From a virus (Duplodnaviria; Heunggongvirae; Uroviricota; Caudoviricetes): a DNA stretch of 64,000 nucleotides. Shown piece by piece: positions 15,121 through 64,000 of this stretch. The notes below the pieces were generated by a model that had not been told where the DNA came from, ran no database searches, and was given only the letters and a program-made list of their open reading frames with translations. The position numbers and the translations under genes were made by a program. The first letter of the stretch is position 1; each line of letters opens with the position of its first letter. Location of the stretch: positions 1 through 64,000 of IMG/VR virus record IMGVR_UViG_3300020048_000019; one strand, written 5' to 3'.

Positions 15121-15138
15121 TGTGTTGCATGCTATAAT
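15110..15138 (+). promoter_or_regulatory. sigma70-like promoter TTGCAA-N17-TATAAT (TGCTATAAT)
   Basis: Read directly. Lies immediately after the thyX stop. Confidence 0.4.
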
Positions 15139-15176
15139 ACAGCATGGCAATAACTCGTAATCACACAGCGGAATAT

Positions 15177-15479: not shown

Positions 15480-15735
15480 ATATGTAGACGCCGAAGTCAC
15501 ACTTCCGCCTCCAGTAAAGAAGCAGGTGTGGGACGGTGAGAAGTTTGTACCGATGACACTGTATAAAACAAAAGGCTGGCCAGGCATGGAAGCAGAGAAC
15601 TGGTTGCTTGAAACTTTTGGGCACCCAGGCACATACCGTGCTGGAAGATTTTGGGATTACAGTAGAGCCGGAGACTTCACGCTGATGGATGAAAAAGTTT
15701 ATACATGGTATCAAATGAAATGGAGTAAAAGATGA
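15460..15735 (+). CDS. hypothetical protein (91 aa)
   Basis: ORF only. Confidence 0.35.
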   Translation: MWEQKIEYVDAEVTLPPPVKKQVWDGEKFVPMTLYKTKGWPGMEAENWLLETFGHPGTYRAGRFWDYSRAGDFTLMDEKVYTWYQMKWSKR

Positions 15736-41334: not shown

Positions 41335-41650
41335 GTGTTTTTTTGCTCCAATATGTTCCGTTTTGTTCAACTACTATAGCAACGTCATGTTCATGGCACA
41401 TTGTGCCAGTGTTGTTGGGTACAATTTTTTGTGTAGTTTGCCAGGTCAACTCAACCATTCGGCCATCACGCACTCGCACACAACTGCTGCCGAGGTTGTA
41501 TGCTGCCTGGTCAATCTCAATATATGTACCTGGCAGATCCTCCATGCTGTAGAATAATGGAACGCCCGACTCATCGTGATACAGTCTGTAAAACACCGGC
41601 TGGGGCTCGGGCATGTTGGCTATTGCACCAAAGAATTCTTCAGGTGTCAT
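41321..41650 (-). CDS. hypothetical protein (109 aa)
   Basis: ATG at 41650 gives an ATGA overlap with the upstream stop. Confidence 0.3.
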   Translation of the reverse strand: MTPEEFFGAIANMPEPQPVFYRLYHDESGVPLFYSMEDLPGTYIEIDQAAYNLGSSCVRVRDGRMVELTWQTTQKIVPNNTGTMCHEHDVAIVVEQNGTYWSKKTHEAN

Positions 41651-46398: not shown

Positions 46399-46406
46399 TA
46401 TTTATA
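46399..46406 (-). promoter_or_regulatory. T4-type late promoter TATAAATA upstream of the tail fibre gene
   Basis: The minus-strand reading is gtATAAATAttgaaaacaggaacaggtaactgacATG. It overlaps the stop codon of the upstream gene. Confidence 0.45.
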
Positions 46407-47007
46407 CAGCATTGATATTGCTCAATGTCTGAATCCGCAGAGTGTAATCAATTTGAATCTGGCGGTTTAAGCTTTTTTGTACGGGGTGGAAGATCACGTG
46501 AGTAATCAAACGCAAGTTATCCACTGCACCATTCCAGGACTTCAATCCTAGTTCGTCAAATACAAATTCACCGTTGAAGTTGGTGGAATTGTCAAACGCT
46601 TGTTGTTGTGCAGGCTCGCCGTAATCCAGCAAACACTGCACTAAAATATCAGTGTATACGTTCCCGGCGGTGTGTAGCACGGTCATTTTGTTGTTGGCTG
46701 GATCAGTATCAGCAGCTGAATTATCGTTGACAACTTTGCTGTATGTCTCATTGTACAAGTCAGCATTTTGTCCTGTAGTGTTTGGGGGCAAATATGTAAT
46801 AACTCCAGTGGGATCTACACTGCTACCGCCATTACCAAACGCCATGCTGTAGATCTGTCCCAACGCTCGATCACTAAGTGTTTGAGCCATTGCTACTGAG
46901 ATATTCTCGTAGTGAATGGCGTTGTGATCGTTATAAAATATCTCACCATTTGATGGGTCGTGTATCTTGACATGCCCAGTAATTTTAGCTAGTCCTGGCT
47001 GAATCAT
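46402..47007 (-). CDS. hypothetical virion/assembly protein (201 aa)
   Basis: ATG confirmed. Sits between the giant ORF and the tail fibre gene. Confidence 0.4.
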   Translation of the reverse strand: MIQPGLAKITGHVKIHDPSNGEIFYNDHNAIHYENISVAMAQTLSDRALGQIYSMAFGNGGSSVDPTGVITYLPPNTTGQNADLYNETYSKVVNDNSAADTDPANNKMTVLHTAGNVYTDILVQCLLDYGEPAQQQAFDNSTNFNGEFVFDELGLKSWNGAVDNLRLITHVIFHPVQKSLNRQIQIDYTLRIQTLSNINAV

Positions 47008-47150
47008 GCTCGGCCCTCCACATAAGTTTTTTGTGTTTGCGGATCAAAGATACGCATGTGACCTTGCACCGAGATTGAGCCAGTTTCATTGGGCTTTCGG
47101 GGTTGAGCCGGTTTCTGCTCAACCTGTTGTTTTTGCTGTGTGTTTGCCAT
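47004..47150 (-). CDS. small Gln/Lys-rich protein (48 aa, MANTQQKQQVEQKPAQPRKP...)
   Basis: Not in the ORF track. ATG at 47148-47150, ATGA overlap with the 46402..47007 start. Fills the gap after the giant ORF. Confidence 0.3.
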   Translation of the reverse strand: MANTQQKQQVEQKPAQPRKPNETGSISVQGHMRIFDPQTQKTYVEGRA

Positions 47151-47169: not shown

Positions 47170-50100
47170 TTATTCACCGCGCAAGAACCTTGCAGCCACA
47201 GTATCAGTATCTTGCAATGCAACACCGTCGCTAGCGGTTCCGTCACCAGTTTGATACCAGGTCTTTCCGCGGCGGACCAGTATAGTAACTTCGACTCCGT
47301 TTGGAGGAGCAACAAGTTCAGGCACTGCGCTGCCATCAACTACAAATTGTATTGATAAAGGATCAAATTGCCCCAGGTTCCACGGATACTGACATGGAAT
47401 AATATCTCCAAATTGGTTTGCAGTAGCAAGATACTGCCGTGTTCCGCCCACATATACTTCAATTGCTTTGGTATCAATGGAACTATCTTCAAGTGGATTA
47501 TCAAGTTGGATACTTGGAGCATAAAATACTGTAGTAGATCCATCACCAATACTGGTATCTTTTACAATGTAGTCTTGGTATTCTGTATTCAACAAATTAC
47601 CACGTCCAGTGTCATAGACGTCTGCATCAACTGCATGCTCTGCAGCCGCTGTGCCAGCAGTACCTCGGCGCAAGCCGCTGACAGTATTATCAGCAAGATT
47701 ACGTTCACGATACATGATTCGTTCCCCATCAATAGTAATCACGCCAAAAACTCCGTCGGCTAAGTTTGGTTCACTGAGTATTCCAGCATTGGTTACATGT
47801 ATTACATCAGCATCTGCCGACAGTAGTTCAGATACAGTAGTAGTGGTAGTTGGGGTGATTCTATAAGTTGCTTGTACACCTCGCATGTCTTGGAACACAC
47901 GGAATGCAATTGCTTCAGGAGTAACACTATTGGTAAATTGAGTAATTACCATCACGTCAGTGATATTGATCGCGCCCGAAGCCAAGATCAAATATTCCCC
48001 TTCAACCACAAAGTCAACACCTTCAAACTGTTGTTCACCGTTCAGTGTTACCCACAAACGGCCAGCACTGACGTTGGCACGACCAAGCCAAAAATCATTG
48101 TTGTATACTATAGTACCAGCTGAATAATCAAATGATCCCGAAGTATTGTTAAATGCATTAGTTGTGCTGTTTCTGCTGTACACTGGACCAGTAGTAGTAC
48201 CTGTTCCGCTAGAAACAGCACCATTCTGAGTGGCAACAAAAGACACCCCAATTGTGTTAGATGCTGCCCCGAAGCTTACAAAGTTAGTAGTACCAACGCT
48301 GGCAATTGTGTAAGTGTCACCAAGCTTGATTGCAGTTGCTGGTACAGTTCCAGTGCTAGTTAATTCAACAAAATTGGGATCATATGCAGTAGCTTGATAG
48401 CCTTCAACCACAGTGATACCTGAAATAACTGGTCCAAGAAATACCGATGACAATATATTTTGCTGTGCAGTATCGTTCCATGTGACAACTGCAACTTCGT
48501 CACCTAAATTAATTGTGCCAACAATTTGTACTTGATTGTTGTTTACTATGTAGTCTGCAATAGTGCTAACTGAAATCAAGATTTGGGCTCCAGCTGCTGG
48601 GGCAGTGACAAACACTACTTGGCGGCCAGGAACGTTGGATCCAGACCAATTAGATACACTATAGTCTCCGTTAAATGCACCAAAACTTTGAGTCTGCAAC
48701 ACACTGTCTACCCAGACTTGTATGTCATTAATTGCGTCGATAATATTTTGTTCATATCCGCCACGCTGCGGCAACCCAAAGCTAACACTTGAATCGTCGC
48801 CAAGCCATTCAATTCCCTCGGCAGGTTGCAATCGTAAACCATTGCGAATGACTATCATGTTGGCAGGATTAGTGCCACCAACGTAGTTGTTCAGCTCTAG
48901 AGTTCTGCTAGCTTGCAGACCAGAATCAATAACAAAATTCTCAACCTGAGGGGTGCTCCAGCTGTATTGAACAGGAGTAGTTGTCCCTAGAACAGCAATG
49001 CTAACGCCATCTGCAGTACCAAATGTAGTTCCAAAATCAACCAAGGTTAACAATGTTGGAACAAACTCTATCCAGTATGCAATGTCAGTTATGGCTGTTC
49101 CGCCAGGAACCAGCTGTGCTGCACGGTAATAGCTGCCAGATTCGTTAACTATGGTGTTACGATCATAAGTTTCAAGAATACTCCAATCAACACTGTCAAT
49201 GTACGGCGTCCAAGTGATGCCGCCGATTGCTGTGCCGTTCACAAATACAACCACATCGTAAATTTCAACGCTGCTTACTGGAATTTGTAGAGTCTGTCCT
49301 AGTTGTGCTCCTGTATAACTATTGCGGTATAATTGGCTGCCGCCACCAATCTCATAAACATTAATATTGATAATTTCGCCATCAATTATACCATCAATGA
49401 TCTCAATTGATTGATCAGCCCAATTTACATAGTAATTGATACCATAATATAAATCTAGGCCACGTGTTAAATTACTAACCAAGACTTGTACTGGATTTTC
49501 AACAATGTTGGCCCAACTGTATAGGTTGGTCACGGCCGGTTCGTATGTATAACGAATAGTGCCAATCTGAAACCCGTGACCGTCGCTGCTCCAATCAGCG
49601 CCCGGTCGTGTGTAAACACGGAAGTCCATTGTGTCAAATTCGCTACCATTAACTAGTTCTTCAGGGGCATGCGTCTCAAACGCTCCTAAGAATTTGCCGC
49701 CATCTACATTGATATCAGTGGGCAAGGTTCCTGTTGTAATGTTATTGAATCCATTTTCATACACTACGTCGAGTGCAGTTGTTCCCAAGAAATAATCACC
49801 AAATACCTGAACACCCGGATAATCAACTCCGTCAATTAGGAGAGGTAATTCCAAGCCAGGCTGATTGACGCCTGGCACATACAAGCCCATGGTACGATCA
49901 ACGCCAGTTACATATGCAGTACCGGCCGCAACTTCGTAGTAGCCTTGAGCAGCATTATATGTCAACTGCAAGTTGGCAGGATTGACCAAGATCCAGTTTT
50001 CAAGATCAAAAGTTGGGCTGACCACAGCAGTGGAATCTTGACTTGCTGCTTGCCAAATACGATTGTCATATCTTGCTAGTTCTCCATCCTGATATGTGGC

Positions 50101-53100
50101 GTTAGCTTCCCAAGTTTGAACGTTGGTATTGTATTGCACACGATCGTAGCGCAGTGTAGTCTTGAATTGTCGCACAAGATCATTGCCCATGACTGCATAA
50201 GCACGGGCAGCAACACCATTGCCCCCGTCGAATGTCACAGTCGGGGTTATGTTGTACCCAGCACCCGAATTGGTAATGCTAATTCCAACAACTTGACCTA
50301 AACTATTGATAATAGCAATTGCTTCGGCTGCTTGGATGGCCTCACCAGTAAAGACCACCAATGGTGGTTCTGTATATCCGGATCCACCATCAACTATTTC
50401 TACATCTTGTAATTCCAACAAATAATTATTGTACCACTGATTATAAGGCCAGGTAGACCACACAGTGCTAGTTAACGGCACATTGCTCTTGGTGTTTAGC
50501 GCAGCATTGAATGCACTGCCCGACTCATAAGGGGTCAGAATTGGACTTACATATTGCGGGACTTCTAGCGAAGTGTCATAATATGCTGGCAAATCAAAGT
50601 CTGTGACATCACCAAGATACTGGTCAAAACCAGAATATTTCAAGTTGAACTCGCGTATCTGTACGTGATATGGTTTGACTTCTTGAATGTAATCTTCAAC
50701 AAATTCTTGATTGTCTCGGATGTAGTTCTGGAAAGGCACCAATTCGCGCAACCTGTGGTCAACGTCAATCAACGAAGTCTTGATCAACCATTCTGGGGCA
50801 GAAAACTCACTCAACACATAGTTGAACATTAGAACCAATGCACGGTTACGTTCTATTGCAAGATCGTCAATAAACAGTTCTTCGTTAATGGCTTGAATAA
50901 TTTTTCGAGTTTCAATCACAGGCTCTTGGTCATAGTACTGTGCATCAAATACTTCAACGTCCCATCCGAATCTACCAGCAGCATAATCCCACAGCTGGTT
51001 AGAAAATTCAATAGTGCCGCCTTGCAACCCAACTCGCTCCCAACCTAGGTCAGTGCGTAGATAAATTTCCCACTTGCCTTGCGAGTTAGCAGTTACTTTA
51101 ACAGAACTTCCAACAGGCACCGACAATGCATCTAGCGAGCTATATGTAACTACTTCGGCTACTACACGAACACTGCTATTGTAGCCTGTACGGTACCAGT
51201 CGATGTAGGCCCAGTAATCGGGTGTATTGTAATTTTGCACTCGGGTCAACACTAGCACACGTTGCGTTGGCACAGTGTCTCTTGCCTGCACAGTATAAAT
51301 GGTCCAGCGGCCGTTATTGTTAGCATCAGTCTCTACTAGGTAACGATAAGGTAAACTAGCTTCGGGAATTGCATCAATATCCTGATAACCAAGTATTTCT
51401 AAATTAGCTACACGTTGGTTCCAGTTAGTAACAGTAACAGTGTCGATCAGCACTGATTGTGCCGGCTCAGATTCTTTACTGTTTAGCAAATTAAAATTAC
51501 GACTTTCAGTAATAGGATATTGTGCCAATATAGTATTTGCGCGAGTCAGGTAGTTGCGCAATGCTTCAAAGCGGTCCACAAACATACTCTGACGAGGACG
51601 GAATTGCACACCATATCGTTCAGCTGGGCCTAGGTTGGGGTCAGGAACTATGTTACCAAAAGTGTCAACTCCGCAGAAGCTATCCTGTAACTTACGATAC
51701 AAATTATTACTCAAGAAGCCGTCACCACGATCTTGTGGGATTAATTCGTATTCAGTGTGAACATTATTTGTGGTATATTCACGATCGTACTCAATATGCA
51801 AGATAGTATCTTGCGCTTGAATATAATCCCCCGAATTGTAAATTGCAACGGTGCTGGAATTTATAGGAGCCAGATACGCAATACCAGAAGCGCGAGGGTT
51901 TTCGATATAACTAGCAACCACACTAGCTGGTAGCGTTTTTCCAAGGCCAGTAACTGTGGCTGTAATCCCGCGTACCCAGAAATAGTATTCAGTAGCAATG
52001 TTACCATCAATTGCGAGCCGTCCATTTACGGCATAACTCAAGGTATCACGAGGAGTACCCTCGCCAGCGTACTGTGCTGGTGGCACACTACTCACTACCC
52101 ATTGATAAACATCTACACTGGATCCTGGAAACAACTGTGCCCACCTGCGTGAAGCATATACAATGCTGTCCTGATTAGGATCAATAAAACGAGCACTTGT
52201 TGTGTCCCACCACATTTTACCAACATGCCCATTGGTCCAGGTAGTTCCTCGAATGTTGGTTGGGCCCGAATTGTAACTAGCCGGATCCACGGATCCAATA
52301 TAATCTAGGTTCTGGCGTGCAGCACCAAGAATTTTGCCTTGTAGCGGATTTATAAAGTCCAAAAACTCTGTCGTAGCCGAAGTCACTCGGTCATACAAGA
52401 ATACCGAGTTCAACAATTGTATATCAACTACAGGTTGTTGTTGTTGGATAGTTGTCCAGGCAGCTCCTCTGTTAGCATTATCATAGATATACACTGCACC
52501 ATAATTTGCAGCGCCAGAGTCTTCAAAGTCATTGCCGGGTGTGCCAATCAACAGCACACCCGAAGTGTAATTGATAGCAAGACCGTATTGGTCATAAGAA
52601 TTAACAGATGTGTTGCTGATTTGCTGACCAAATACAAACTTTCCTGGATTAGTTACGCTCATGGTTGAGCTTGCCAAATAATCATATGCATACACTGCCC
52701 CGCTTTGCACCGTGATTGAAAAGAAGGTGGTACTGCCAATATCAAATATAGTCGAGCCATCATCAAAGATATTTTCCAAATACAGCGTGCCATTTGGGGC
52801 TCCGACAACCAAACTAATTGCAGATGAATCCAACGAAACACTGCTACCAAATCCAGCAAACTGAACTGGGTATGGACTAGTAATCGTTTGAGTCCAAGCA
52901 AATGTTTCGAATGTCAAGGCATCAAACGCAGTTCCTACAGAACCAGGGCTGACTTGTACTTTGTTAAAATCAGTTGCTGCTAGGCTATTCTTGACTGCAA
53001 CAGTCAAATAACCAGCAGTATTAACTGTGGCAGAAATGTTCGGAACCACCACATTGATTTGTTCAGCTAATGCACGTACCTGAGCACTTGCTGTCACCGT

Positions 53101-56100
53101 AGTAGTTACTTGCTTCCAATAAGTGGTATTGGAAATAGCTGTCAGTGCCGGTACTAACTGGACCGCTAGATATATTGTAGTGGTTGCACCAACAGTGTTG
53201 TATACTACTTGATTCACAGCATAAGCAAGGGCACTGTTCCATTGATCAGGAACTGTTACATCAATGTTGTTGACTCGTAATGTATTACCAGCAGTCAATA
53301 CAGCATTGGCCACTAACGATGTTGTAGTACCATATACGCGACTTTGGTTAACTTTTCGTTCAACTACACCACCCTTGTAAACTTGTTCACTACTGTTAGG
53401 TTCTCCAACGTACAAGCTGCAATCATAACTGCAAAGCTCTACTGCATAACCAAAGTTACTAAATTCTGCCAAAGTGTTTTGTTCCACAGATTGCATTAAT
53501 ACAAACTGATTGGTTTCAATTTCAACTACATCACCAACTGCTAACGAACCATTGATAGTAATTGCAGATGCGCCATTCCAGCTAAAAGTATTAGAACCAT
53601 CAACAACTGCATCATCCTGATTGATATAGAATATGTTATTGACTAGCACACTAATAGGAGGAGCAGCAGGTGTGCCGAGCACTGTAAACACTGGGTTTGC
53701 TGTGGTACTAGTGTTGATGAACTTCTGCACATTTCGATCAAACACATACACAGCGCCGGCTTGTGTTGCCGAGCCCACAGTTTGATTAGGTGCACCAACT
53801 AACACTTGTCGGCCGTCGCTGGTACAACTAATGGAGCTGCCAAATCGAGCTCCAACAATTAGTCCAGCCGCTGTGATACTGTTTACATATTTGAAATAAC
53901 TTTGTGCCTCTACAACAATAGTTGCCCCGGCAACTGGCACAGTAACAAATGTCAGTTGCGCAGTGCCAGTGTTGAATGTATAATCAATATTGGGTCTATA
54001 GATAGTTCCGTCAACCTCAACTGTAAACGAATAAATGTTGTCCACAGTAAAGAAGTATTGTCCAAGATCAAATACTGAGGTCAAGCTCACTGGCGTGTAT
54101 GCGATATTGAACGTTAGGATGCCGCCGCCGCCATCAACACTAGCGATAGTCAATACCAAGTTGGCTTGACCGCCAAACTTACTTGACGCAAATGTTACTG
54201 TGTTGCCCACAACATAGTTTGATCCTGTAGTTGTAACACCTACGCTGCCTTGGGTGGCCCCGGGTTGACCAACTTGATTACGAACACGGATGATAGTAAA
54301 CTTTGCGCCTACGCCAGATCCCGAAGTAGAAGTTTGAGTCACATCGTAATAAGTTTGTGCGTCCAGTGGCTGCACGTAGATGCGTTGTATGTCAACTATT
54401 GTCCCTAAAGCAGGCGCTGTTGCAAATGTAACTTCAGTAAAGCCAGCATCAACTGTGTAATCAGTACCCAGTAACTGTATTGTTCCATCAACTGTAACTT
54501 TGAGTTGGGTGCTTATGTCGATTTGAATAATGCCATCGATAGAATATACTGTAGTAACATCGTCGCCGCGTGAACGAACAAATTGATTTTGCCAATCAAC
54601 TCGGCCATATGCATGCACTTGATTCAGCCCAGGGGCACCAATATACATCCAGCGCTCGTCTTGACTCATTACGACACTGTAGCCAAATTCTCCGGCGCCG
54701 GGTGTGGTGCTGGTTGTTGTACCTGGTTGTGTTAGTAATTGCAGTTGTGTGTATGGATTAGTGTTTGGCTGTCCCAGTGCAGGGTCGCGATAGATCACAG
54801 CAGCATAGCCGTTATCAGCTTGTGCGCCAGGGCCCAGGCTCTTGCTTGCACCTGCTACTGCCCAAGTTTGATTACCAAAGTCAACTGCATTACCGTATCC
54901 ACGAGCACCAGTTGCATTTAGTTCAAGAATAGCATCACCGCTAATGTTAGTGGGGCTTGTTAAGGTAAAGGTACCTCCAACATTCTTAACGTACACAAAT
55001 ACAGCACCAGTTTCAGTCCCCGAATCATGGCCATACCGCGGGACGCCGACCAATGTAGCCAATCTGTCTTGTGCTTGCGCAACGCTTTGGCCATAGTAAT
55101 CGCCTGCATTAAGCGTCACAGGGCGTAGTGTTTGTGTGGCTGTGAATATGTCTTGCTTTTCGAGCACTTCCCATAATTCACTACCGTTATTGTCAACCCA
55201 AACACGGGCCCCAGAATTTAAATTCTGAGCATATGGTAAATCAACAATGTCACTAGCTTGCGCCACTCTCATGGTCTGTAATGTAAATCCTAAGCCAATG
55301 CCGTTAGCAACTGATCTGTCCCCGGTGAACTGGAAAGAAATATTTACAGTGTTTAAACTAGCAACACCGAGTACTTGGTAGACACCATCAACTTCGGGAT
55401 CAAAGAACTTGATAATCAACTTGTCGCCAACGCCAAGTCCATGTTGTGCGCTAAAGATTACCCGGCTGGTTCCATTCAAGTTGTCACATACGTGTTGGAT
55501 TATTCCTGGTACAGGTTCTGCACGATAAATGTTCCAATCATAGTCGTTGGTCTTTGCTACCCAGATACTGGTACCAACTTCAATTTCGTCAATATTTGCA
55601 GCCAAGCTAGTGGTATCTGTAATATCAAATACTGTAATGTCTGCATCATCAATGTTTACATATCCTGCACTCGGCAACGCTACATCAGTTGGCGTAGTAA
55701 TTGTAGTTGGAAGAATATTTGTGCTGGTCAATTTGTAGCTCTGGCGCCATACGTCACTCAACAAGATAGTCTGATCAGCTTCAGAAGTTTCTTGTGGTAA
55801 TGCTATTTTGACCAGGCTTGGGTTAGCATTGAGTAGTGCCCGATTTAATCTTAATTCAATAAAACTACGGTTAGCATTGGCACCGTACACCGCTTGTTGT
55901 ACTGCCCAATTTTCGTAAACATCATAGTCGGCATTTTCTTTACCAAGATTTGCACCTTTGAACAATTCTGTTGCTTGTACTGTTCCTTTGGTATCAAGGA
56001 ATTGTCTGTATATATTGAGTTGACTTACATCATCTAGATTCAACGCTGCCATATATTGACGTGGTCGGAAACCAATCAGACCGTAGCTTAGTAAGTCAGT

Positions 56101-59100
56101 ATCGCTTTCAACGTTGGCCACATTTATGTCATAACTATTTTGCAACTGGTTTGCTTTGTTAGGCAAGTTAGGCAGTAATCCTAGTTCAATTTGTTCGTAA
56201 TCGCTTTGTGTCCAGTCATTAAAGTTGAACGATACACTGGCCTGCACAATAGTCAACGCCGACCAGTATACATTTTTATATTTGACAATTTCGCCCTTGC
56301 TGTATGTGCGAGTACCAGTCCATTCCTCGACGTTGTCTTGATTAAGAATAAAGCCCGGAGCATTAACACTACCGTTCCAATCAGTTGTGGTCACTGCTAT
56401 TAGATTCAAACGACTTTGACGTGCTCCGGTAGTGGGATCATAGATCAAGTCTCCAAACACACTTTGATTGTCCATGACAATAATATGTTCATACGCAGTG
56501 AAACTCAAATCTGTGTAGCTGATTGCCTGCGCATTCAAGGGCTGGATACTAAACTCGTTACCTAATCGTACAATATTAAGATTGCGGGTAGGAAACTCAT
56601 TGCTATTTTGATCTAATACGCCATTGTTGAGAGTTTGTGAACGGATTGTGTCCACCACTGCCTTGTCTCGAGATATCTTTAGTCCAGCAGCTAATGGGTT
56701 TAGATTGATGATTGCATCGGTGTTCCAACCTTGGTTGCTCCAGTATAGGAATTCTTGAGACATGCGTTGCCAATCAAGAATATAGGAGTTGGCTATATTG
56801 TCAAAGGTTAGCCCTTGTGTTTCAAGGAACTTGCCATAACTCAACAAAAAGTCAACCACACTAGTTGCACTTGAAAAAACAAAACCGTACGGAACTTGCA
56901 CTACTGTATTAGAATAAGTGATTGGAACCCGCACAGTTACGCCACCAGCGGTGATGTTTTGTTGACGACCAGCTGCACGACTTTCTAAAATGTTAAAATA
57001 CGGTTGTGTGTTACCATAACCAAATACAGCGTAGCCGCCATCGGCAGTTTTTTGTACTGCAACACTGCTATAAGTTGTGCGGGTAAAGGGTTGATTCTTG
57101 TATACAAACAAATTATAACTTTCGTCAGGAATCAACAGTGCAGTGTTCAGACTGTTAGGACTCGATTTCTCAGTATAAATCTTGATATATTGTTTGTCAG
57201 AATAACTAGCCAATCGGTAGCACAATCGCACATCAAGACTGCGCAAACTGGCAGTAAGAGTGTCAGTTGAGTTTATGCCAGTTAGACGATTGTAGTCAAC
57301 GATCCAGTTGATATAACTGGCTTTGCTAACACCATTCCCGTATACTTCTATTCCGTTAGCATCTAATCGATAACGGTTATTATACAAATATTGATTGTAA
57401 TCAGTATTGTAACGATACAAGTCTCGGTCAGCAAATAACGCAAAGAATTTAGCCGGACGTGTTAATGCCAACACACGCATGACAGAGAATGGATATGCGC
57501 TGCTGTTCCACCAAGATGCTTCAACTGGGCCGCCGTCGCCGATTGCCCATGATCGTTGGCGCTGATTTTCATCAAACGTACCGACTACTGATGCAAATGG
57601 GCTCAGTAATTCGCCCGACGTGCCTGTGGGGATTACTTTTGTCAGGCCAGGGCGTGCGTATTCTAATCGAGTGTGTGGTGCAATTGGATCAGCAACGTAG
57701 CCTGCTTCCAGGTCGTCCCACAAAACCAAGTTGTCAGCAGTATAAGGTGCTGGACCATAACGATCTTGCCACCAGGTTGGCTCTACACTGAGTCCCAGCA
57801 TTTCCCACGGAGTCAGACTAGGTTGCTGGGTATCATAGAAGTAACGATAGATCCCGCGCCAGGCTCCCAGCAAGTTTTCATTGTTGAGTTTGTTTTGTGC
57901 AGCACTGTAATTCCAGGTAAACTCGTTGTTGGCAAAATATGTTTGATTATTGAAATCTAATTTGTTCCAGCCACAGTAGCTGAGAAAGTCTGCACCTAGA
58001 ATTCCTGAAATTTCTTGATATGAATATCCAGTACTACGGAAGTTGCCGGGCAGTACATTTTCAATAGTCAATGGCACTGGGTTATTATCCAGTTTTAAGT
58101 TGTTGTAGATACGAGTCTCAAATTCCAACAACACTTGATCGCGAATATCCTCAAAAACAGGTGTAACACTACCGTCATGACCTAAGATTGCAGTGCTTTC
58201 ACCATTGCTAGTTACCTGAGTAACTATTTCTGGTTGCCAGGCTGGATACAATCCCAGTTTGGTAGGGGTATTAGGCACAAAGCTGCCATATGTGGTAACA
58301 TATTCATTGATAGTAATAGCATCACCAACGCTGAGTGCAGTGGTAACAGTGATACGAGGGCCGTCGGCTGCTACTATGTAATCAACCCCACGAGTAAGTA
58401 AATTATCATTCAAATAAACCAGCAATCCAAGATAGTTTGCTGTGTTGTAATTGTACACCTGTACAGTATCAAATATGTTGGTAGTAATAAAACTTACCAA
58501 GTATTTTGTGCTGTAAGTTGTAACTCCTTGCGGAAGCATATCACTCCAATAGAATGACTGGCTATCTACTTTGCCTAAGGTGATATCCTGAATAGCAGTA
58601 TCTAAAATTTGTGCAGGCGTCTGAAAGTTGATTACTTGTTTGGTTACTGCATCCAACAACTGAGCCTTGTACTTGATGTATTCTCGACTGTTGTATTGTA
58701 ATGCTTCAAAGATATTGTAATTTTGACTACGCATAAAATAACCAGTCAAGGTAATCGGAGCACTCTGTTGTAGTATAATTAGACCATAAGGAACAATATT
58801 GCCAAGATCTCGTGTGTTGTTGGCACCATTAACTGATCCAACCAAGGTGGTCAAGTTTTCACAGATGCTTTGATAGTGTGTACGAATAGTACCCAAGGTA
58901 AAACTAGGGCTGTTGGCATTGAGAGGATTACTTTCAAGATTGATTGGTACCTGGAAGAAACCAGTAGCGCTGGTTTGTTCACTCAAGATCAATACTTCAA
59001 CTATTGATTCTAATGCAACAGTATCAGCTAATGTAATTGTGGTGTTGTTGTTGGTAACAGTATATGAGTAAGTTTTGGGGTCTTGAAAAATAGATCCAAT

Positions 59101-62100
59101 ATACAATTTAACCACAGGAACTGAAATAGTGGTTTGATTGTTAGCAGCAACGTCTAACTTTAATGTGGCGCCTGTGTAGGTAAAGCTAAACTGTTGATAA
59201 ATTTGGCTTGGGACCACAGCGGTTTGCCAGCCTAGTAATTTCTGGTATGTTGCGCGAGTTGCGTACTCGCGCACTGAGCCTGAACTGATATCTGACGTGA
59301 CAGACGCATTATCAACTACGTACAAGAATGTATCTTTGTACATGTTGTTTTCAAACACAATATCACCAACGTTGTTGATATTCAGATACTGCAAAGGAAA
59401 CTGCAAAATAGGATCCAAGATTGAAGTATCGCCTACTGCATAAGAAAACAGTTTACTACCAACAAACGTAGTTGACTGGTACTTTGTAGCGTCGCCAAAA
59501 CTTACACCATCGGTGTCGTAGATATTGTACAAGGGCGCTTGTTGCACACCAGTCTTTTGTTGTGCTTCGATCCAATCGGATCCATCGTACCAGTATGTTT
59601 TGCCGCCAGTTAATATTGGTATTGGTGCAATGTCTGTTCCACTGTTTAGGATCACAGTATTTTGATCAGTAGATAGTACTCCATCGTCAGCTAGTGTTAA
59701 CACAATGATAGGTTGCGAAATTAATGGCGCAACGCTATCTGGGGTAACAAAGCTCACAACATAAATTTTGTTACGGACATCAGGATCTGTGTCGGCTGCA
59801 AAAATTACACGGCTACCTTCAACAAAAGTATATCCATCTACACTGTAACTAGTACTACCTTCAATGTTGGAGAATGCATCAGTTGCAGAAAAATCAATTA
59901 CGTCAACTGGCGCTTTGCCGTCAGACCCCATGTTCCACAAACGAATTCCTGGTCGGAATTGAATGATTGGCCGCTTGGCACGATAGTTGTTGTCTAGTAC
60001 CGCAGGAGTGTTGTTATACTTGGCAGTGGCATCGATCACGTCAATGTGGAACCAACGGTTGCTACGAGTCCAAGCATTCAAGTCCTTGCTGGCACGGTTA
60101 ATAGTTAGATAATCAAGCTGCTGAGGTTCTTTTGCCAAAGTACTGGTATTGTAATCTACAACGTATGTCTCAGGTACAACAAAATTTTCAACTGGCAGCA
60201 ATTCAATTGCTGTGCCTACACCCGCAACATAATATTCTTTATCGCTGATTGAAATTGCAGTTGCATTACCAGTGCCAAATTGAAGTTGTGTGTTTGTGCC
60301 ACCCTTTACAGTGCTAACTGTAAATTTGGTACCAATTGCAGCAATGGTGCTGACATAATAACTAACCCCTGCTTCAAGTCCGCCAAGGGTAGGTGCAGTG
60401 AAAACAATTTCTTGTCCAATGTACAAGTCCTGGGCATCTTCAAGGTTGATGTAGTTTGTGATTGCTTCGGTGCCAATATAGGTAAATGATGTATTGCCTG
60501 ATCGGTATCTTGCAGGCTCTACATCTCCTAAGAATTGAATCTTGAGGCCATTAGAGAACACCACGCCGTTAGGAGCAGTATAAGTTGGACTACCAATAAT
60601 TTCGTCAACAAAGATTGTTGACGACGCAACTTGATCAATTAATTTAATTCGTCCAAAAATTTCTGGGTCTGTTGCATCTTGATAGTATAGTGTATCCTGT
60701 ACCGCAGTCAGCAACGGAATTTGTTTGTATACGCCTGTTGCATCTTTATACCATTGTGTATTGCTGTAAATTGTGCCATACAAAATCTTGAACTTCTCAA
60801 GATTGCTTACTTGTGTAATGTTGGCAAGGTTGATATAAGTTTTGCCTGACAATGTTACATAGTTGATTTGCCAAATGTCATAACGTTGACTCAATGGTAT
60901 CTCTGTTGTTTCACTATAAGGAGTAGAATCAAAACTACCAGGGAGACCATTGTTGGCTGGGCCAGCATCAAGTGGGTCAAACAGTGAAGTTCTGATCCAG
61001 CCACCAGCTTCGGCACCGGGCACAGTATTAGTAAAGATCAATGTACGACTATTGAGATTAGTAATGCCATCAATGCCACCATATGTTGCAATAAATTGAT
61101 CTAATGGTTGGTTGTTGATTTGATCAAAGGTCAAATTGGTCACAAGATCAACGTTGTCGATTGCAGGTAAGTTGTAGTAAAAATCTTGAGATGTTTTGTA
61201 CGGAGCGTTGAATATTATGGTACCAAGATCTTCGCCGTTGTTTTCTACTCCAAAAACGTCTCTACTAGAAATATTGTTAGCAGTGGGCAATGTACCACTA
61301 ATTCCGGGTGCTGCTTGAATCCAAAAACCAGGACCAGTGCCCGGCACACCGTCGATAATAGTCAAGATACCTTGCATGTTGCTTTGATTTTCAGCAATGT
61401 AATATAATGTGTCAGGAGCATCCTGAGGTACAGTAAATGTTACTAAACCTGTGCTAGCACCATTTCGAATCACACCATTGCTGTAGGTTTGACTGAGGCC
61501 AGTAACTGGGGCAGTTTTTATCCAGAATGGAAAAACTGCATCAGTGTTCAGATTGAACACATAGGTATTTCCACGACTCAGTGTCAAGGTTGGATTGTTC
61601 TGAAAGTCAATTACGTATGCTGCGATACCAGAATTACGAACTCGATAGTTCACAGTTTCTTTGGTGTTTTGCGCTACTTGGAAAGTGTAGCTGCCGCCCC
61701 TGACTAATTCAATCACGGGATTATTACCAGCAATTCCACCAAAGGTATAAACACCATTTGCACGATCAACTACATAATTGCGGCTAGTAGGTATTGTTGA
61801 TGCCTGTACGTCCACAGCGTTGGGTCCGTTGGGCAACCAAAAATATTGACTAAAGTTAACAAAGGTGTCAAAGTCAACAAATGGATCCCATGAATAATAT
61901 TCGCTGGTGTACAATCTGTCAGGGCGACTATTGGGACCTTGCTGATAGCCAATAGCATCGTTGATGCCGGGATATGTGATGGTGTCTGCAATTCTATCAG
62001 TGTCGGGCACTAGACTTACTACCCCTGGCTCTAATTGGTAATTGGCACGAACCGCATCAGGTTCAACAATATATCGATCACCAGGGTTAACACCCGGTCC

Positions 62101-62241
62101 AACACGGCGACCAACAAAGCCTTGGGTTTTTGCAAACTGTGGCTCTTGAATAAGTTGATCCAATGTAGCAGCAAGGAACTGCTTATTAGCATCTGTCTGA
62201 AAAATTTCAGGAAGAAAGTCTACACTACGAACTGTTGCCAT
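47170..62241 (-). CDS. giant 5023-aa virion-associated protein with FG-GAP (integrin-alpha-like beta-propeller) repeats
   Basis: Uninterrupted 15-kb ORF with ATG start. TAATG overlap with the upstream gene. Thr/Ser/Asn/Gly/Val-rich. About seven repeats of type FGxSVxxxxxxxxLxVGAP...GAVYVYD between residues ~2380-3255. Confidence 0.7.
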   Translation of the reverse strand: MATVRSVDFLPEIFQTDANKQFLAATLDQLIQEPQFAKTQGFVGRRVGPGVNPGDRYIVEPDAVRANYQLEPGVVSLVPDTDRIADTITYPGINDAIGYQQGPNSRPDRLYTSEYYSWDPFVDFDTFVNFSQYFWLPNGPNAVDVQASTIPTSRNYVVDRANGVYTFGGIAGNNPVIELVRGGSYTFQVAQNTKETVNYRVRNSGIAAYVIDFQNNPTLTLSRGNTYVFNLNTDAVFPFWIKTAPVTGLSQTYSNGVIRNGASTGLVTFTVPQDAPDTLYYIAENQSNMQGILTIIDGVPGTGPGFWIQAAPGISGTLPTANNISSRDVFGVENNGEDLGTIIFNAPYKTSQDFYYNLPAIDNVDLVTNLTFDQINNQPLDQFIATYGGIDGITNLNSRTLIFTNTVPGAEAGGWIRTSLFDPLDAGPANNGLPGSFDSTPYSETTEIPLSQRYDIWQINYVTLSGKTYINLANITQVSNLEKFKILYGTIYSNTQWYKDATGVYKQIPLLTAVQDTLYYQDATDPEIFGRIKLIDQVASSTIFVDEIIGSPTYTAPNGVVFSNGLKIQFLGDVEPARYRSGNTSFTYIGTEAITNYINLEDAQDLYIGQEIVFTAPTLGGLEAGVSYYVSTIAAIGTKFTVSTVKGGTNTQLQFGTGNATAISISDKEYYVAGVGTAIELLPVENFVVPETYVVDYNTSTLAKEPQQLDYLTINRASKDLNAWTRSNRWFHIDVIDATAKYNNTPAVLDNNYRAKRPIIQFRPGIRLWNMGSDGKAPVDVIDFSATDAFSNIEGSTSYSVDGYTFVEGSRVIFAADTDPDVRNKIYVVSFVTPDSVAPLISQPIIVLTLADDGVLSTDQNTVILNSGTDIAPIPILTGGKTYWYDGSDWIEAQQKTGVQQAPLYNIYDTDGVSFGDATKYQSTTFVGSKLFSYAVGDTSILDPILQFPLQYLNINNVGDIVFENNMYKDTFLYVVDNASVTSDISSGSVREYATRATYQKLLGWQTAVVPSQIYQQFSFTYTGATLKLDVAANNQTTISVPVVKLYIGSIFQDPKTYSYTVTNNNTTITLADTVALESIVEVLILSEQTSATGFFQVPINLESNPLNANSPSFTLGTIRTHYQSICENLTTLVGSVNGANNTRDLGNIVPYGLIILQQSAPITLTGYFMRSQNYNIFEALQYNSREYIKYKAQLLDAVTKQVINFQTPAQILDTAIQDITLGKVDSQSFYWSDMLPQGVTTYSTKYLVSFITTNIFDTVQVYNYNTANYLGLLVYLNDNLLTRGVDYIVAADGPRITVTTALSVGDAITINEYVTTYGSFVPNTPTKLGLYPAWQPEIVTQVTSNGESTAILGHDGSVTPVFEDIRDQVLLEFETRIYNNLKLDNNPVPLTIENVLPGNFRSTGYSYQEISGILGADFLSYCGWNKLDFNNQTYFANNEFTWNYSAAQNKLNNENLLGAWRGIYRYFYDTQQPSLTPWEMLGLSVEPTWWQDRYGPAPYTADNLVLWDDLEAGYVADPIAPHTRLEYARPGLTKVIPTGTSGELLSPFASVVGTFDENQRQRSWAIGDGGPVEASWWNSSAYPFSVMRVLALTRPAKFFALFADRDLYRYNTDYNQYLYNNRYRLDANGIEVYGNGVSKASYINWIVDYNRLTGINSTDTLTASLRSLDVRLCYRLASYSDKQYIKIYTEKSSPNSLNTALLIPDESYNLFVYKNQPFTRTTYSSVAVQKTADGGYAVFGYGNTQPYFNILESRAAGRQQNITAGGVTVRVPITYSNTVVQVPYGFVFSSATSVVDFLLSYGKFLETQGLTFDNIANSYILDWQRMSQEFLYWSNQGWNTDAIINLNPLAAGLKISRDKAVVDTIRSQTLNNGVLDQNSNEFPTRNLNIVRLGNEFSIQPLNAQAISYTDLSFTAYEHIIVMDNQSVFGDLIYDPTTGARQSRLNLIAVTTTDWNGSVNAPGFILNQDNVEEWTGTRTYSKGEIVKYKNVYWSALTIVQASVSFNFNDWTQSDYEQIELGLLPNLPNKANQLQNSYDINVANVESDTDLLSYGLIGFRPRQYMAALNLDDVSQLNIYRQFLDTKGTVQATELFKGANLGKENADYDVYENWAVQQAVYGANANRSFIELRLNRALLNANPSLVKIALPQETSEADQTILLSDVWRQSYKLTSTNILPTTITTPTDVALPSAGYVNIDDADITVFDITDTTSLAANIDEIEVGTSIWVAKTNDYDWNIYRAEPVPGIIQHVCDNLNGTSRVIFSAQHGLGVGDKLIIKFFDPEVDGVYQVLGVASLNTVNISFQFTGDRSVANGIGLGFTLQTMRVAQASDIVDLPYAQNLNSGARVWVDNNGSELWEVLEKQDIFTATQTLRPVTLNAGDYYGQSVAQAQDRLATLVGVPRYGHDSGTETGAVFVYVKNVGGTFTLTSPTNISGDAILELNATGARGYGNAVDFGNQTWAVAGASKSLGPGAQADNGYAAVIYRDPALGQPNTNPYTQLQLLTQPGTTTSTTPGAGEFGYSVVMSQDERWMYIGAPGLNQVHAYGRVDWQNQFVRSRGDDVTTVYSIDGIIQIDISTQLKVTVDGTIQLLGTDYTVDAGFTEVTFATAPALGTIVDIQRIYVQPLDAQTYYDVTQTSTSGSGVGAKFTIIRVRNQVGQPGATQGSVGVTTTGSNYVVGNTVTFASSKFGGQANLVLTIASVDGGGGILTFNIAYTPVSLTSVFDLGQYFFTVDNIYSFTVEVDGTIYRPNIDYTFNTGTAQLTFVTVPVAGATIVVEAQSYFKYVNSITAAGLIVGARFGSSISCTSDGRQVLVGAPNQTVGSATQAGAVYVFDRNVQKFINTSTTANPVFTVLGTPAAPPISVLVNNIFYINQDDAVVDGSNTFSWNGASAITINGSLAVGDVVEIETNQFVLMQSVEQNTLAEFSNFGYAVELCSYDCSLYVGEPNSSEQVYKGGVVERKVNQSRVYGTTTSLVANAVLTAGNTLRVNNIDVTVPDQWNSALAYAVNQVVYNTVGATTTIYLAVQLVPALTAISNTTYWKQVTTTVTASAQVRALAEQINVVVPNISATVNTAGYLTVAVKNSLAATDFNKVQVSPGSVGTAFDALTFETFAWTQTITSPYPVQFAGFGSSVSLDSSAISLVVGAPNGTLYLENIFDDGSTIFDIGSTTFFSITVQSGAVYAYDYLASSTMSVTNPGKFVFGQQISNTSVNSYDQYGLAINYTSGVLLIGTPGNDFEDSGAANYGAVYIYDNANRGAAWTTIQQQQPVVDIQLLNSVFLYDRVTSATTEFLDFINPLQGKILGAARQNLDYIGSVDPASYNSGPTNIRGTTWTNGHVGKMWWDTTSARFIDPNQDSIVYASRRWAQLFPGSSVDVYQWVVSSVPPAQYAGEGTPRDTLSYAVNGRLAIDGNIATEYYFWVRGITATVTGLGKTLPASVVASYIENPRASGIAYLAPINSSTVAIYNSGDYIQAQDTILHIEYDREYTTNNVHTEYELIPQDRGDGFLSNNLYRKLQDSFCGVDTFGNIVPDPNLGPAERYGVQFRPRQSMFVDRFEALRNYLTRANTILAQYPITESRNFNLLNSKESEPAQSVLIDTVTVTNWNQRVANLEILGYQDIDAIPEASLPYRYLVETDANNNGRWTIYTVQARDTVPTQRVLVLTRVQNYNTPDYWAYIDWYRTGYNSSVRVVAEVVTYSSLDALSVPVGSSVKVTANSQGKWEIYLRTDLGWERVGLQGGTIEFSNQLWDYAAGRFGWDVEVFDAQYYDQEPVIETRKIIQAINEELFIDDLAIERNRALVLMFNYVLSEFSAPEWLIKTSLIDVDHRLRELVPFQNYIRDNQEFVEDYIQEVKPYHVQIREFNLKYSGFDQYLGDVTDFDLPAYYDTSLEVPQYVSPILTPYESGSAFNAALNTKSNVPLTSTVWSTWPYNQWYNNYLLELQDVEIVDGGSGYTEPPLVVFTGEAIQAAEAIAIINSLGQVVGISITNSGAGYNITPTVTFDGGNGVAARAYAVMGNDLVRQFKTTLRYDRVQYNTNVQTWEANATYQDGELARYDNRIWQAASQDSTAVVSPTFDLENWILVNPANLQLTYNAAQGYYEVAAGTAYVTGVDRTMGLYVPGVNQPGLELPLLIDGVDYPGVQVFGDYFLGTTALDVVYENGFNNITTGTLPTDINVDGGKFLGAFETHAPEELVNGSEFDTMDFRVYTRPGADWSSDGHGFQIGTIRYTYEPAVTNLYSWANIVENPVQVLVSNLTRGLDLYYGINYYVNWADQSIEIIDGIIDGEIININVYEIGGGSQLYRNSYTGAQLGQTLQIPVSSVEIYDVVVFVNGTAIGGITWTPYIDSVDWSILETYDRNTIVNESGSYYRAAQLVPGGTAITDIAYWIEFVPTLLTLVDFGTTFGTADGVSIAVLGTTTPVQYSWSTPQVENFVIDSGLQASRTLELNNYVGGTNPANMIVIRNGLRLQPAEGIEWLGDDSSVSFGLPQRGGYEQNIIDAINDIQVWVDSVLQTQSFGAFNGDYSVSNWSGSNVPGRQVVFVTAPAAGAQILISVSTIADYIVNNNQVQIVGTINLGDEVAVVTWNDTAQQNILSSVFLGPVISGITVVEGYQATAYDPNFVELTSTGTVPATAIKLGDTYTIASVGTTNFVSFGAASNTIGVSFVATQNGAVSSGTGTTTGPVYSRNSTTNAFNNTSGSFDYSAGTIVYNNDFWLGRANVSAGRLWVTLNGEQQFEGVDFVVEGEYLILASGAINITDVMVITQFTNSVTPEAIAFRVFQDMRGVQATYRITPTTTTTVSELLSADADVIHVTNAGILSEPNLADGVFGVITIDGERIMYRERNLADNTVSGLRRGTAGTAAAEHAVDADVYDTGRGNLLNTEYQDYIVKDTSIGDGSTTVFYAPSIQLDNPLEDSSIDTKAIEVYVGGTRQYLATANQFGDIIPCQYPWNLGQFDPLSIQFVVDGSAVPELVAPPNGVEVTILVRRGKTWYQTGDGTASDGVALQDTDTVAARFLRGE

Positions 62242-64000
62242 TAGATAACTCCACTACCAGGGGCAGTACGCAAATTGGTACTGGTTAATGCGTCAATCAC
62301 TTCAATGTTGTTAATGGTGGCGCCATTAACGAAAATCTCATTGGGTTGACTACGAATCTCATATAAATCACCAAAACTCTTTTGGGAGTCTAACGGTACT
62401 AACACGACAGAACTAATAATAGTGCCTAGTTCTCGATGCAGATATGCTGCCAGTTCAGAGAAGTAAAACGTGTCACCAAAGTTCCACTTGTCAATGCTAA
62501 AATAATCGTTCATGACTGCCACTACTGAGCTTTTGATTTCACTAATACTAGCAGTTGAGTTGCTGGCACGAATTACTTTAATTGTGGCTCGCAAATTATT
62601 TGCTGCTTTTTCGCCAAACAACGGCTTGAATGTTACTGAGTTCAAGATGATATTATCACTCAACATTTTGTAGTCTTGCAAGCCCTGATACGCTGTGCTT
62701 AACTCATCAATACTGGGCTGTGCAGGATCGGGCACAGTACCAGTCGTGTCACGAATCCAGTTCTGATATGAAGTATAGTATGACAGAGTCACAACATACA
62801 AGTCAATAATGTTTGTGGTTCCTGGGTCAATTCTTGATGTCAGCGGGCTGTTGTGACGATATTGATAGTACAGACTTTGGCGACCAGTCCGAGCAATCCA
62901 ACCTGACACTTCCACCAATGTCCTAGCACCAGTTACACTAATACTCAGTTCATAAAATGTCTGCTCAGTATAGGCATAAAATACTTGGCCCGGTGTCCAC
63001 TCTGACTTGACCAATTCAATTTCGTCAATTGTAGCGTAGTCGCTGATCACCCGTCCGGGCTCGACCAACAAGTATCTTTGCAAGTTGTCAAAGTCCACTG
63101 TTTGCTGCAAGAATATTAGCTTTTGATTAGAATCGGTATCAGGCGCAACAATTTCTGTAAAGAAATCTGGATTGTCCGGAACTCCGTCATTGTCGCTGTC
63201 ACGGAATCCAACTAGTACTTGGAAGTCATCAACATAACCATCGCTCTCAACAGGTTGCCCAGTAATGGTCATATAGATATCGCCGGGCAGCGGCTCTGTT
63301 GAATCTGGCTGTGTGTTTACTGCCAAGCAATTGATGTAATCTTTGATCACAGTGCCAGTCCGACTGTCGTACACTTGCTGACCATCATAGAAGAAGAAAC
63401 GAGTCTGTAACACTGATCCAAAGCTGTAGCTGAGTCCGCGGAATGTAATAGTGTAGTTGCTGTTATTGACTTGGAAGGCTACCAGCCACGAACTGTCGCC
63501 GCCAGGTACTGATTGCCCAGCATTGGTTTGACTCCAAGGAGCCACTTCAGTTGTGCTGTCTACATAATACTTGAGGTTGGTACTATTGATCAAGTACCAA
63601 GAATACGGTGTGCCAGTAATGCTGCCGTCGTTATCATAACCAATGCCAAATGGGCGCAACAATAAAATTTGTTCTGCCATCGCAGTTTCTAATGCAATAG
63701 GCAAATCAGTTACAAACAATGGGATTACTTGTTCGACAATTGCCCCAGTAGGAACATAATTGTTGATTGTAACTGGTCCTTGTCCAGAAGGCAAATTGCC
63801 AAGTCCTTGGTTGCTACCATCACCTACAATCTCTTGAGGGCTGGCCCAAATTTCTGTGCGTTCGTCGGCCCGAGTAGGAGCACCTTGTTGCAACTTGTTG
63901 TTTTTGTCAAAGTAGTAGCCAGTTGGTGCAACAAATTTGACCAAACTGCTGACTGCGATATATTTCAATGCAGTACTGCTAGTATTGCCAACGATTACTG
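62241..64000 (-). CDS. structural protein, 5' end beyond the window (at least 586 aa)
   Basis: The ORF is open to the window edge. The apparent start at 63968 is a TTG and is probably an artefact of truncation. Its stop overlaps the giant ORF start (TAATG). Confidence 0.45.
   Translation of the reverse strand, partial: VIVGNTSSTALKYIAVSSLVKFVAPTGYYFDKNNKLQQGAPTRADERTEIWASPQEIVGDGSNQGLGNLPSGQGPVTINNYVPTGAIVEQVIPLFVTDLPIALETAMAEQILLLRPFGIGYDNDGSITGTPYSWYLINSTNLKYYVDSTTEVAPWSQTNAGQSVPGGDSSWLVAFQVNNSNYTITFRGLSYSFGSVLQTRFFFYDGQQVYDSRTGTVIKDYINCLAVNTQPDSTEPLPGDIYMTITGQPVESDGYVDDFQVLVGFRDSDNDGVPDNPDFFTEIVAPDTDSNQKLIFLQQTVDFDNLQRYLLVEPGRVISDYATIDEIELVKSEWTPGQVFYAYTEQTFYELSISVTGARTLVEVSGWIARTGRQSLYYQYRHNSPLTSRIDPGTTNIIDLYVVTLSYYTSYQNWIRDTTGTVPDPAQPSIDELSTAYQGLQDYKMLSDNIILNSVTFKPLFGEKAANNLRATIKVIRASNSTASISEIKSSVVAVMNDYFSIDKWNFGDTFYFSELAAYLHRELGTIISSVVLVPLDSQKSFGDLYEIRSQPNEIFVNGATINNIEVIDALTSTNLRTAPGSGVI

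Follow-up and report, generated by a model that had tools for sequence, protein, structure and literature searches.

In contractile tails the wedge genes of the baseplate follow a universal order, which is W-J-I-H in P2 and 25/6/7 in T4. The largest gene of many jumbo phages codes for a giant protein which is without a solved structure or an assigned function. These proteins are catalogued as the family PHROG 10938, and cultured members include gp355 of the Pseudomonas phage PA5oct (gp128 in the paper), gp180 of the Agrobacterium phage Atu_ph07, gp245 of the E. coli phage phAPEC6, protein 294 of the Sinorhizobium phage Phosso and gp140 of the Salicola phage SCTP-2. In the structural proteome of phAPEC6 the entry that follows the baseplate wedge protein gp244 (131 kDa) is gp245, a protein of 382 kDa (PMC7247149). 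The PA5oct gene is among the largest of its genome and adjoins the baseplate genes gp129, gp130, and gp133 (PMC7318152); the record of PA5oct gp355 carries the note 'ESI-MS/MS'. Here we analyse a giant open reading frame (ORF) of an environmental virus of the Caudoviricetes, found on a stretch of 64,000 nucleotides (IMG/VR record IMGVR_UViG_3300020048_000019, positions 1 to 64,000; the whole stretch is called the window). A preliminary description had presented its product as a phage-borne adhesin or host-recognition protein of exceptional size with integrin-like repeats.

By sequence, the giant protein can be placed in PHROG 10938 as a colinear member of this family of jumbo-phage giant virion structural proteins. 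We are confident that it is a virion protein associated with the baseplate, and we consider it probable that it forms a peripheral-baseplate scaffold of a jumbo myophage into which adhesion or docking modules are plugged. The gene and its parts, with positions in amino acids (aa), are as follows.

47170..62241, minus strand: giant ORF, 15,072 nt, ATG start, 5023 aa and stop
61747..62241, minus strand: N-terminal region, putative anchor, aa 1-165; 34% identity to PA5oct, 32% to Atu_ph07; phrog_10938 positions 22-156
61342..61794, minus strand: two cupredoxin-fold beta-sandwich domains, aa 150-300, without copper ligands
55795..60336, minus strand: conserved core block 1, aa 636-2149; matches PA5oct gp355 (E 2e-126) and Atu_ph07; phrog_10938 E 5e-226; occupancy 0.96-1.0
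56212..56322, minus strand: CBM5/12-like (chitin-binding type 3) motif, aa 1974-2010, WTGTRTYSKGEIVKYKNVYWSALT...NDW
52468..55104, minus strand: predicted seven-bladed FG-GAP (integrin-alpha-like) beta-propeller, aa 2380-3258, from Pfam, repeats, AlphaFold2, and Foldseek
50566..52467, minus strand: conserved core block 2, aa 3259-3892; PA5oct E 3e-48, Atu_ph07 E 2e-40; phrog_10938 E 9e-70
47173..50565, minus strand: C-terminal region, aa 3893-5023, kept within the environmental clade, not with PA5oct
49993-50112, minus strand: second CBM5/12-like motif, aa 4044-4083, from a motif scan

The phrog_10938 profile was matched colinearly at its positions 22-156 (E 1.7e-19), 159-424 (3e-50), 561-1463 (5e-226), and 1758-2465 (9e-70 over positions 1803-2462). 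Compared by blastp with PA5oct gp355 and Atu_ph07 gp180, the protein is conserved at aa 1-165, 636-2149, and 3259-3892 and variable at aa 170-635, 2150-3258, and 3893-5023. The N-terminus and the two core blocks are thus colinear with the cultured proteins, at 25-34% identity, and the size is of a similar order. The window protein differs from the cultured ones in being longer (5023 aa versus 3342-4555 aa), in having a module of about 1100 aa with the FG-GAP propeller and in an extra cupredoxin-fold domain; relative to PA5oct its C-terminal 1130 aa are unalignable. The family had been catalogued before and is functionally uncharacterised, and the propeller cassette, which none of the examined cultured homologues has, is the new part.

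In a megablast search of 50,697 phage records the gene as a whole had no nucleotide relatives. By tblastn, aa 1001-2000 matched 91 jumbo-phage genomes at 26-29% identity, and the relatives found with this program are PA5oct and its kin, Atu_ph07, Phosso, SCTP-2, Vibrio phage 2.275.O, and RaK2-like enterobacterial phages. The best explanation for the source of the DNA is an uncultured aquatic jumbo myophage of the RaK2 / PA5oct / Atu_ph07 / SCTP-2 supergroup. It is these jumbo phages, instead of the cyanomyoviruses with whose giant ORFs a comparison had been proposed, that are the nearest relatives. The cyanomyovirus ORFs were rejected as the closest family, as only a domain of about 120 aa is common with cyanophage gp7 and 'baseplate wedge initiator' proteins; a short match to such a protein lies in the C-terminal region.

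The cultured homologues measure 3342 aa (Munch), 3771 aa (Vibrio 2.275.O), 3807 aa (SCTP-2), 3857 aa (PA5oct), 4449 aa (Atu_ph07), and 4555 aa (Phosso). Further homologues were gathered by three segment searches and a phmmer scan of the C-terminus. The N-terminal segment search yielded 166 clusters, and the C-terminal 1131 aa gave 2260 matches against 1.84 billion representatives; 44 of the best 150 matches are proteins of 3769-5814 aa, and many of the 2260 stand at the C-termini of 4000-5800-aa proteins. The sources include Global Ocean Sampling data as well as freshwater-associated assemblies; the family is common in aquatic metagenomes. Within PHROG 10938, where 3300-5800 aa is normal (metagenomic members reach 5814 aa), 5023 aa is an ordinary length, and the attribute of exceptional size has to be given up. 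One homologue of the core block (P0044) is annotated as Daphnia sinensis and lies on a contig of 328,785 bp; this contig is probably a complete jumbo-phage genome within a eukaryotic assembly.

For a reading frame of this length it has to be considered whether several genes were joined by missed stops or frameshifts in sequencing or assembly. The frame of 5023 codons contains no internal stop, and given the base composition of the window the probability that so many codons are free of stops is about 1e-124. The ATG overlaps the TAA of the upstream gene by one base (TAATG; ...GGAGTTATCTAATGGCA...), and GGAG is found 8 nt upstream of the start. An identical 5023-aa product was also called on an independent short-read contig in ENA (k141_319469, 54 kb), and the identical neighbouring 201-aa protein is present on two contigs there. 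Moreover, 44 full-length metagenomic representatives of 3769-5814 aa are colinear with it, one homologue (P0210, 4910 aa) being 62% identical across aa 1-5022, and cultured phage genomes carry single ORFs of 3300-4550 aa. The only point in favour of an artefact comes from the related contig L004, where about 12 separate ORFs cover the homologous region. Because the same product is found on the independent contig and in the 44 colinear homologues, a frameshift or fusion is very unlikely, and we regard the chance that the frame is an artefact as negligible. The uninterrupted minus-strand ORF with its true ATG and its overlap was thus described correctly, and the error which had been named as a possible refutation was not borne out.

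In L004 (JGI 3300071517, a contig of 97.7 kb) the giant homologue is represented at 5308-20925 by these consecutive same-strand ORFs of 55-1473 aa. The split is most likely due to indel errors in the L004 assembly and not in the window. Gene breakage of this type accounts for the many database homologues with a length of only about 1000-1700 aa.

The protein is rich in T (9.6%), V (9.2%), G (8.0%), A (7.7%), L (7.4%), N (7.2%), and S (6.9%), in agreement with the composition stated earlier, and contains 9 Cys and 18 His in total. Only three plus-strand ORFs of at least 100 aa (131, 141, and 100 aa) are located within the giant gene, which fits the view that the inner ORFs are antisense shadows.

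The assignment to the baseplate is based on the homologues and on the neighbouring genes. The genes next to the giant ORF are the following.

62241..64000, minus strand: upstream gene, cut by the end of the window so that only its C-terminal 585 aa are included; gp6-like baseplate wedge subunit, phrog_10646 E 7e-105
47004..47150, minus strand: 48-aa ORF located between the giant gene and the gene of the 201-aa protein, with which it has an ATGA overlap
46402..47007, minus strand: 201-aa partner protein, phrog_11259, 39% identity to PA5oct gp357
44553..46373, minus strand: 606-aa putative tail fibre; N-terminal approximately 90 aa like PA5oct gp358 (E 4e-10); phrog_19602 tail fibre and others

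The upstream gene is translationally coupled to the giant ORF via the TAATG overlap. It is 40% identical to the C-terminus of PA5oct gp354 and 77% identical to a 1158-aa protein of contig L006. In PA5oct the order is gp353 (Pfam GPW_gp25), gp354 (gp6-like, 1319 aa), the giant gp355, gp356 (41 aa), gp357, and gp358, and the genes are ordered identically in Atu_ph07, Phosso, Vibrio 2.275.O, Munch, and SCTP-2. The window shares with the cultured phages the neighbourhood of gp25-like gene, gp6-like gene, giant gene, tiny ORF, a protein of about 200 aa, and fibre, except that the gp25-like gene lies outside the window; for this part the evidence comes from L006 with its closely related 1158-aa protein. 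On this contig a gene with a GPW_gp25 match of 28.2 bits (gathering score 27.2) is followed by the gene of the 1158-aa protein and then by a giant gene with a one-base overlap. From the conserved order of gp25-like, gp6-like, and giant gene it follows that the giant protein occupies the slot of gp7 and gpI.

Downstream, the 201-aa protein corresponds to PA5oct gp357 (201 aa), which was detected in virions by mass spectrometry, and in SCTP-2, Phosso, and Vibrio 2.275.O a protein of about 198-201 aa is likewise encoded there. Small ORFs syntenic to the 48-aa ORF exist in PA5oct (41 aa), Atu_ph07 (42 aa), and L004 (50 aa). The 606-aa protein is likely a fibre docking onto the giant protein; its PA5oct counterpart gp358 is annotated as T4 gp10-like / fibre. 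At its C-terminus a weak match to Peptidase_G2 was found (PF11962, E 0.007), which suggests an intramolecular chaperone. The C-terminal part of the 48-aa ORF (ISVQGHMRIFDPQTQKTY) is similar to the N-terminal sequence (KITGHVKIHDPSNGEIFY) of the 201-aa protein.

How far does the likeness to T4 gp7, P2 gpI, and TssG of the type VI secretion system extend? The slot immediately after the gp25-like and gp6-like genes is the same, the giant family has a conserved N-terminal helix segment, and one copy per wedge would be expected. The giant protein is, on the other hand, 5 to 28 times larger, and no similarity in sequence or profile, and so far none in fold, has been detected; the equivalence is positional only. 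Homology to gp7 itself could not be shown. We lean slightly towards regarding the giant protein as the functional equivalent of gp7.

The N-terminal region contains the motif FLPEIFQTDxNKQFLxATLDQL. In an alignment of 99 sequences L10, P11, T16, N19, L23, T26, and D28 are nearly invariant, and the N-terminal stretch of about 30 residues is the most conserved short motif of the family. The structure model predicts a helix at aa 17-31 with a lower predicted local distance difference test score (pLDDT) of 55-77. We infer that this region is a wedge-insertion segment; such a segment would fold only against its partners, and the low pLDDT would then be expected.

Over an alignment of 46 homologues occupancy is nearly complete in the core blocks, and indel hot spots occur only at aa 201-300, 601-700, 2601-2700, 3001-3100, 4301-4400, 4601-4700, and 4901-5000. 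This pattern points to a rigid scaffold with plug-in domains, the cassettes being placed between and after the conserved blocks. The largest cassette, aa 2150-3258 between core blocks 1 and 2, contains the propeller. The preliminary description had reported about seven FG-GAP repeats at aa 2380-3255 and had quoted five of them. All five strings are present, and we found exactly seven FG-GAP-like repeats, starting at aa 2383, 2449, 2519, 2800, 2930, 3131, and 3219. The Pfam family FG-GAP_2 (PF14312) matched two stretches in the second half of the protein with 36.1 bits, above the curated gathering score of 23, and a further match below threshold (17.5 bits) covers aa 2370-2417. A hidden Markov model (HMM) built from 132 single repeats of homologues found six of the seven repeats with E values between 1e-9 and 3e-18 and gave a weak match for the seventh (aa 2448).

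An AlphaFold2 model of aa 2340-3300, calculated with 19 homologues, reached a pLDDT of 74 and a predicted TM-score (pTM) of 0.75. In Foldseek the best match of this model was the head of integrin alpha5 (4wk0_A; E 1.2e-8, probability 1.0, TM(target) 0.57), and the heads of integrin alpha6, alphaM, alphaX, and alphaL were further top matches. The prediction thus has the seven repeats forming a single closed propeller of the integrin-alpha type. As the alignments to the integrin heads span more than 900 columns, the seven blades appear to be separated by beta-domains inserted after blades 3, 4, and 5. These beta-sandwich inserts agree with the Ig-like beta-rich segments described earlier between the repeats. 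Some of the inserts also matched the N-terminal domains of CBA120 TSP4 and a tail chain of cyanophage A4 in Foldseek, which is consistent with fibre-type beta-domains.

With the integrin alpha head (alpha5, PDB 4wk0) the predicted propeller shares the seven FG-GAP repeats and, comparable to the I-domain of some integrins, domains inserted between blades. In contrast to integrins it is without a beta-subunit partner, is embedded in a phage structural polyprotein and shows only about 10% sequence identity. The DxDxDGxxD calcium loops of integrins are also missing: the pattern D.[DN].[DN]G..[DE] has no match anywhere in the protein, and the looser pattern D.[DNS].[DNS]G none within aa 2371-3260. 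Calcium binding by the propeller, which we considered, was ruled out on this ground. The fungal lectin PVL offers another integrin-like comparison for a seven-bladed propeller. Viral FG-GAP proteins have been described in metatranscriptomes of marine Myoviridae, modelled against 4wk0 and proposed to act in adhesion; that work does not assign the repeat to a baseplate protein or to jumbo phages (bioRxiv 10.1101/2025.10.05.680483). Our literature search for FG-GAP in phage virions found no report concerning baseplates.

The distribution of the propeller differs from that of the core. No deposited phage genome matched the module by tblastn, and neither the region HMM nor the repeat HMM found it in seven cultured giant homologues, even at E <= 10. 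Among the 44 full-length environmental representatives the propeller region could be aligned in 42; the two shortest skip aa 2293 to 3257 exactly, as does PA5oct. The propeller is thus a clade-specific cassette inserted between two conserved core blocks.

We considered two alternatives for the function of this cassette. First, the propeller itself could be the receptor-binding site; we lean slightly against this. A role in binding the host surface is plausible. Second, the propeller could be enzymatic, degrading polysaccharides, or could be purely an architectural hub for the inserts and fibres, and then neither lectin nor adhesin. The inserts resemble the N-terminal domains of CBA120 TSP4, which act as branching adaptors; conservation is higher in the blade motifs than in the inserts, and no calcium or ligand motif was found. 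However, no hydrolase or lyase family matched anywhere in the giant protein, and the nearest structural matches are integrin heads, which bind ligands. We regard an enzymatic or purely architectural propeller as doubtful.

The cupredoxin-type domains and the CBM5/12-like motifs are further cassettes. The cupredoxin-type domains at aa 150-300 have the Greek-key beta-sandwich fold, and a function in copper binding was ruled out: none of the copper ligands His, Cys, His, Met could be assigned, as aa 150-300 contain no Cys and no His, so that the resemblance is one of fold only. Only about 4% of the 46 aligned homologues have the extra domain at aa 201-300 (61342-61641, minus strand); it gives matches to phrog_677 ('baseplate wedge tail fiber connector') and to phrog_9158 and looks like a recently acquired cassette. 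For the chitin-binding type the Pfam match CBM_5_12 stays below threshold (E 0.23, 11.9 bits versus a gathering score of 26.2), and the motif scan shows clear aromatic motifs at aa 1974 and 4044. In homologues, the PAC2 protein is annotated as chitin-binding type-3, and PF02839 is precomputed on P0035 and P0045. The C-terminal region contains a GGSGY beta-domain (aa 3943-4046), common to other phage tail and neck proteins, and matches phrog_460 and phrog_1922. A small beta-unit "xVxVNG...DYxV" recurs six times in the protein, including the propeller inserts.

The following mechanism can be proposed. The giant protein would take the place in the wedge that belongs to gp7 in T4 and to gpI in P2, with one copy per wedge, its N-terminal helix inserting beside the gp6-like dimer in each of six wedges. 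The remainder of the chain would form the peripheral baseplate as a single polypeptide, with the propeller and the modules of carbohydrate-binding type pointing outward. These modules could reversibly bind glycans or proteins of the host surface, or they could dock the fibres encoded just downstream. Binding would then be relayed through the wedge and would trigger contraction of the sheath.

Several points weigh against a baseplate scaffold of this kind. Presence of the window protein in the virion is predicted from its homologues PA5oct gp355 and phAPEC6 gp245, which mass spectrometry detected in purified virions; homology supports a structural role in the virion. Alignments of 99 and 47 family sequences compared with T4 gp7 by hhalign gave probabilities below 1%, with single-sequence templates of limited sensitivity, and in comparisons with T4 gp53, gp6, gp7, gp8, gp9, gp10, gp11, and gp12 all probabilities were at most 4%. 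NCBIfam had no match to the giant protein, and neither Pfam nor NCBIfam showed a gp7/gpI-type family in it; nothing significant was found in the PDB by sequence or by family profile. The missing calcium loops belong here as well, as does the fact that the ligand of the propeller cannot be inferred from its sequence. Finally, PHROGs places PHROG 10938 in the category 'head and packaging', a label which is a category and not an experiment. Because of the low hhalign probabilities, the idea that peripheral baseplate proteins of T4 are recognisably fused in the giant protein is unsupported at the sequence level and was rejected.

The category label together with the fact that jumbo phages package large internal proteins could indicate a protein of the head or one that is ejected from it. 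This is very improbable, since in every genome examined the gene is strictly syntenic with genes of gp25-like, gp6-like, hub/lysozyme, and fibre type, and a content of propeller, CBM-like motifs, and cupredoxin-fold sandwiches is that of surface-exposed proteins.

A further alternative is a free-standing giant adhesin or tail fibre, attached by one end and serving purely in host recognition. Adhesion-type modules are present (the FG-GAP propeller and the CBM5/12-like motifs), weak matches to Phage_T7_tail and to domains of tail-fibre type occur, and the variable, cassette-like architecture is typical of receptor-binding proteins. However, about 2300 aa form a conserved, non-repetitive core in phages whose unrelated hosts include Pseudomonas, Agrobacterium, Salicola, Vibrio, and enterobacteria, and a receptor-binding fibre would not be expected to have so widely conserved a core. 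In addition, the gene invariably follows the gp6-like gene directly and is translationally coupled to it, the models show globular beta-domains (these are monomer models and silent on the oligomeric state), no long internal repeats were found in the protein, and a separate fibre gene lies downstream. We consider a free-standing adhesin improbable. Consequently, the earlier interpretation as an adhesin or host-recognition protein can be kept in part: the protein is phage-borne, structural in the virion by homology, and plausibly binds the host, but its position in the baseplate-wedge slot behind the gp25-like and gp6-like genes speaks against a free-standing adhesin or fibre.

The peripheral-baseplate scaffold with plug-in modules is a concrete hypothesis for the construction of jumbo-phage baseplates and for host recognition, and makes aa 2150-3258 and the indel hot spots candidate determinants of host range. 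The finding does not amount to a new kind of system. A stronger version, for which we have limited credence, is that in a whole environmental clade of jumbo phages one polypeptide of about 5000 aa has taken over from the several proteins (gp7-gp11) that make up the peripheral baseplate in T4, with an integrin-type propeller as the primary receptor-binding site. If true, an integrin-like adhesion module would have been domesticated by phages as a direct trigger of tail contraction, and the inter-blade inserts would be exchangeable host-range cassettes.

The giant protein had also been named as a candidate substrate for a neighbouring glycosylation machinery. The immediate neighbours are the baseplate and fibre genes described above, followed by radical SAM paralogues and a carbamoyltransferase.

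27389-38780, minus strand: tandem row of seven radical SAM paralogues, each above the cut-off of NCBIfam NF033640 ('N-terminal twitch domain radical SAM')
24563-26050, minus strand: carbamoyltransferase (Carbam_trans_N/C, E 1e-46), at the end of the radical SAM row
15732-17773, plus strand: nucleotide-sugar epimerase and aminotransferase, further upstream

The only match to GT2 is weak (E 0.005; 40408-41370), and the sugar-nucleotide genes lie about 30 kb from the giant gene. We found nothing that links the radical SAM, carbamoyltransferase, GT2, or sugar-nucleotide genes to the giant protein, and its status as a glycosylation substrate is unsupported. The carbamoyltransferase, epimerase, and aminotransferase look like a phage-carried cluster for small-molecule or sugar modification. 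The radical SAM row lies downstream of the baseplate and fibre genes, at a distance of a few kb, and is interleaved with three ORFs without a family match. Its paralogues are 21-36% identical to each other, and each contains CxxxCxxC. In the Sinorhizobium jumbo phage Phosso a radical SAM gene is located three genes after the module of the giant protein.

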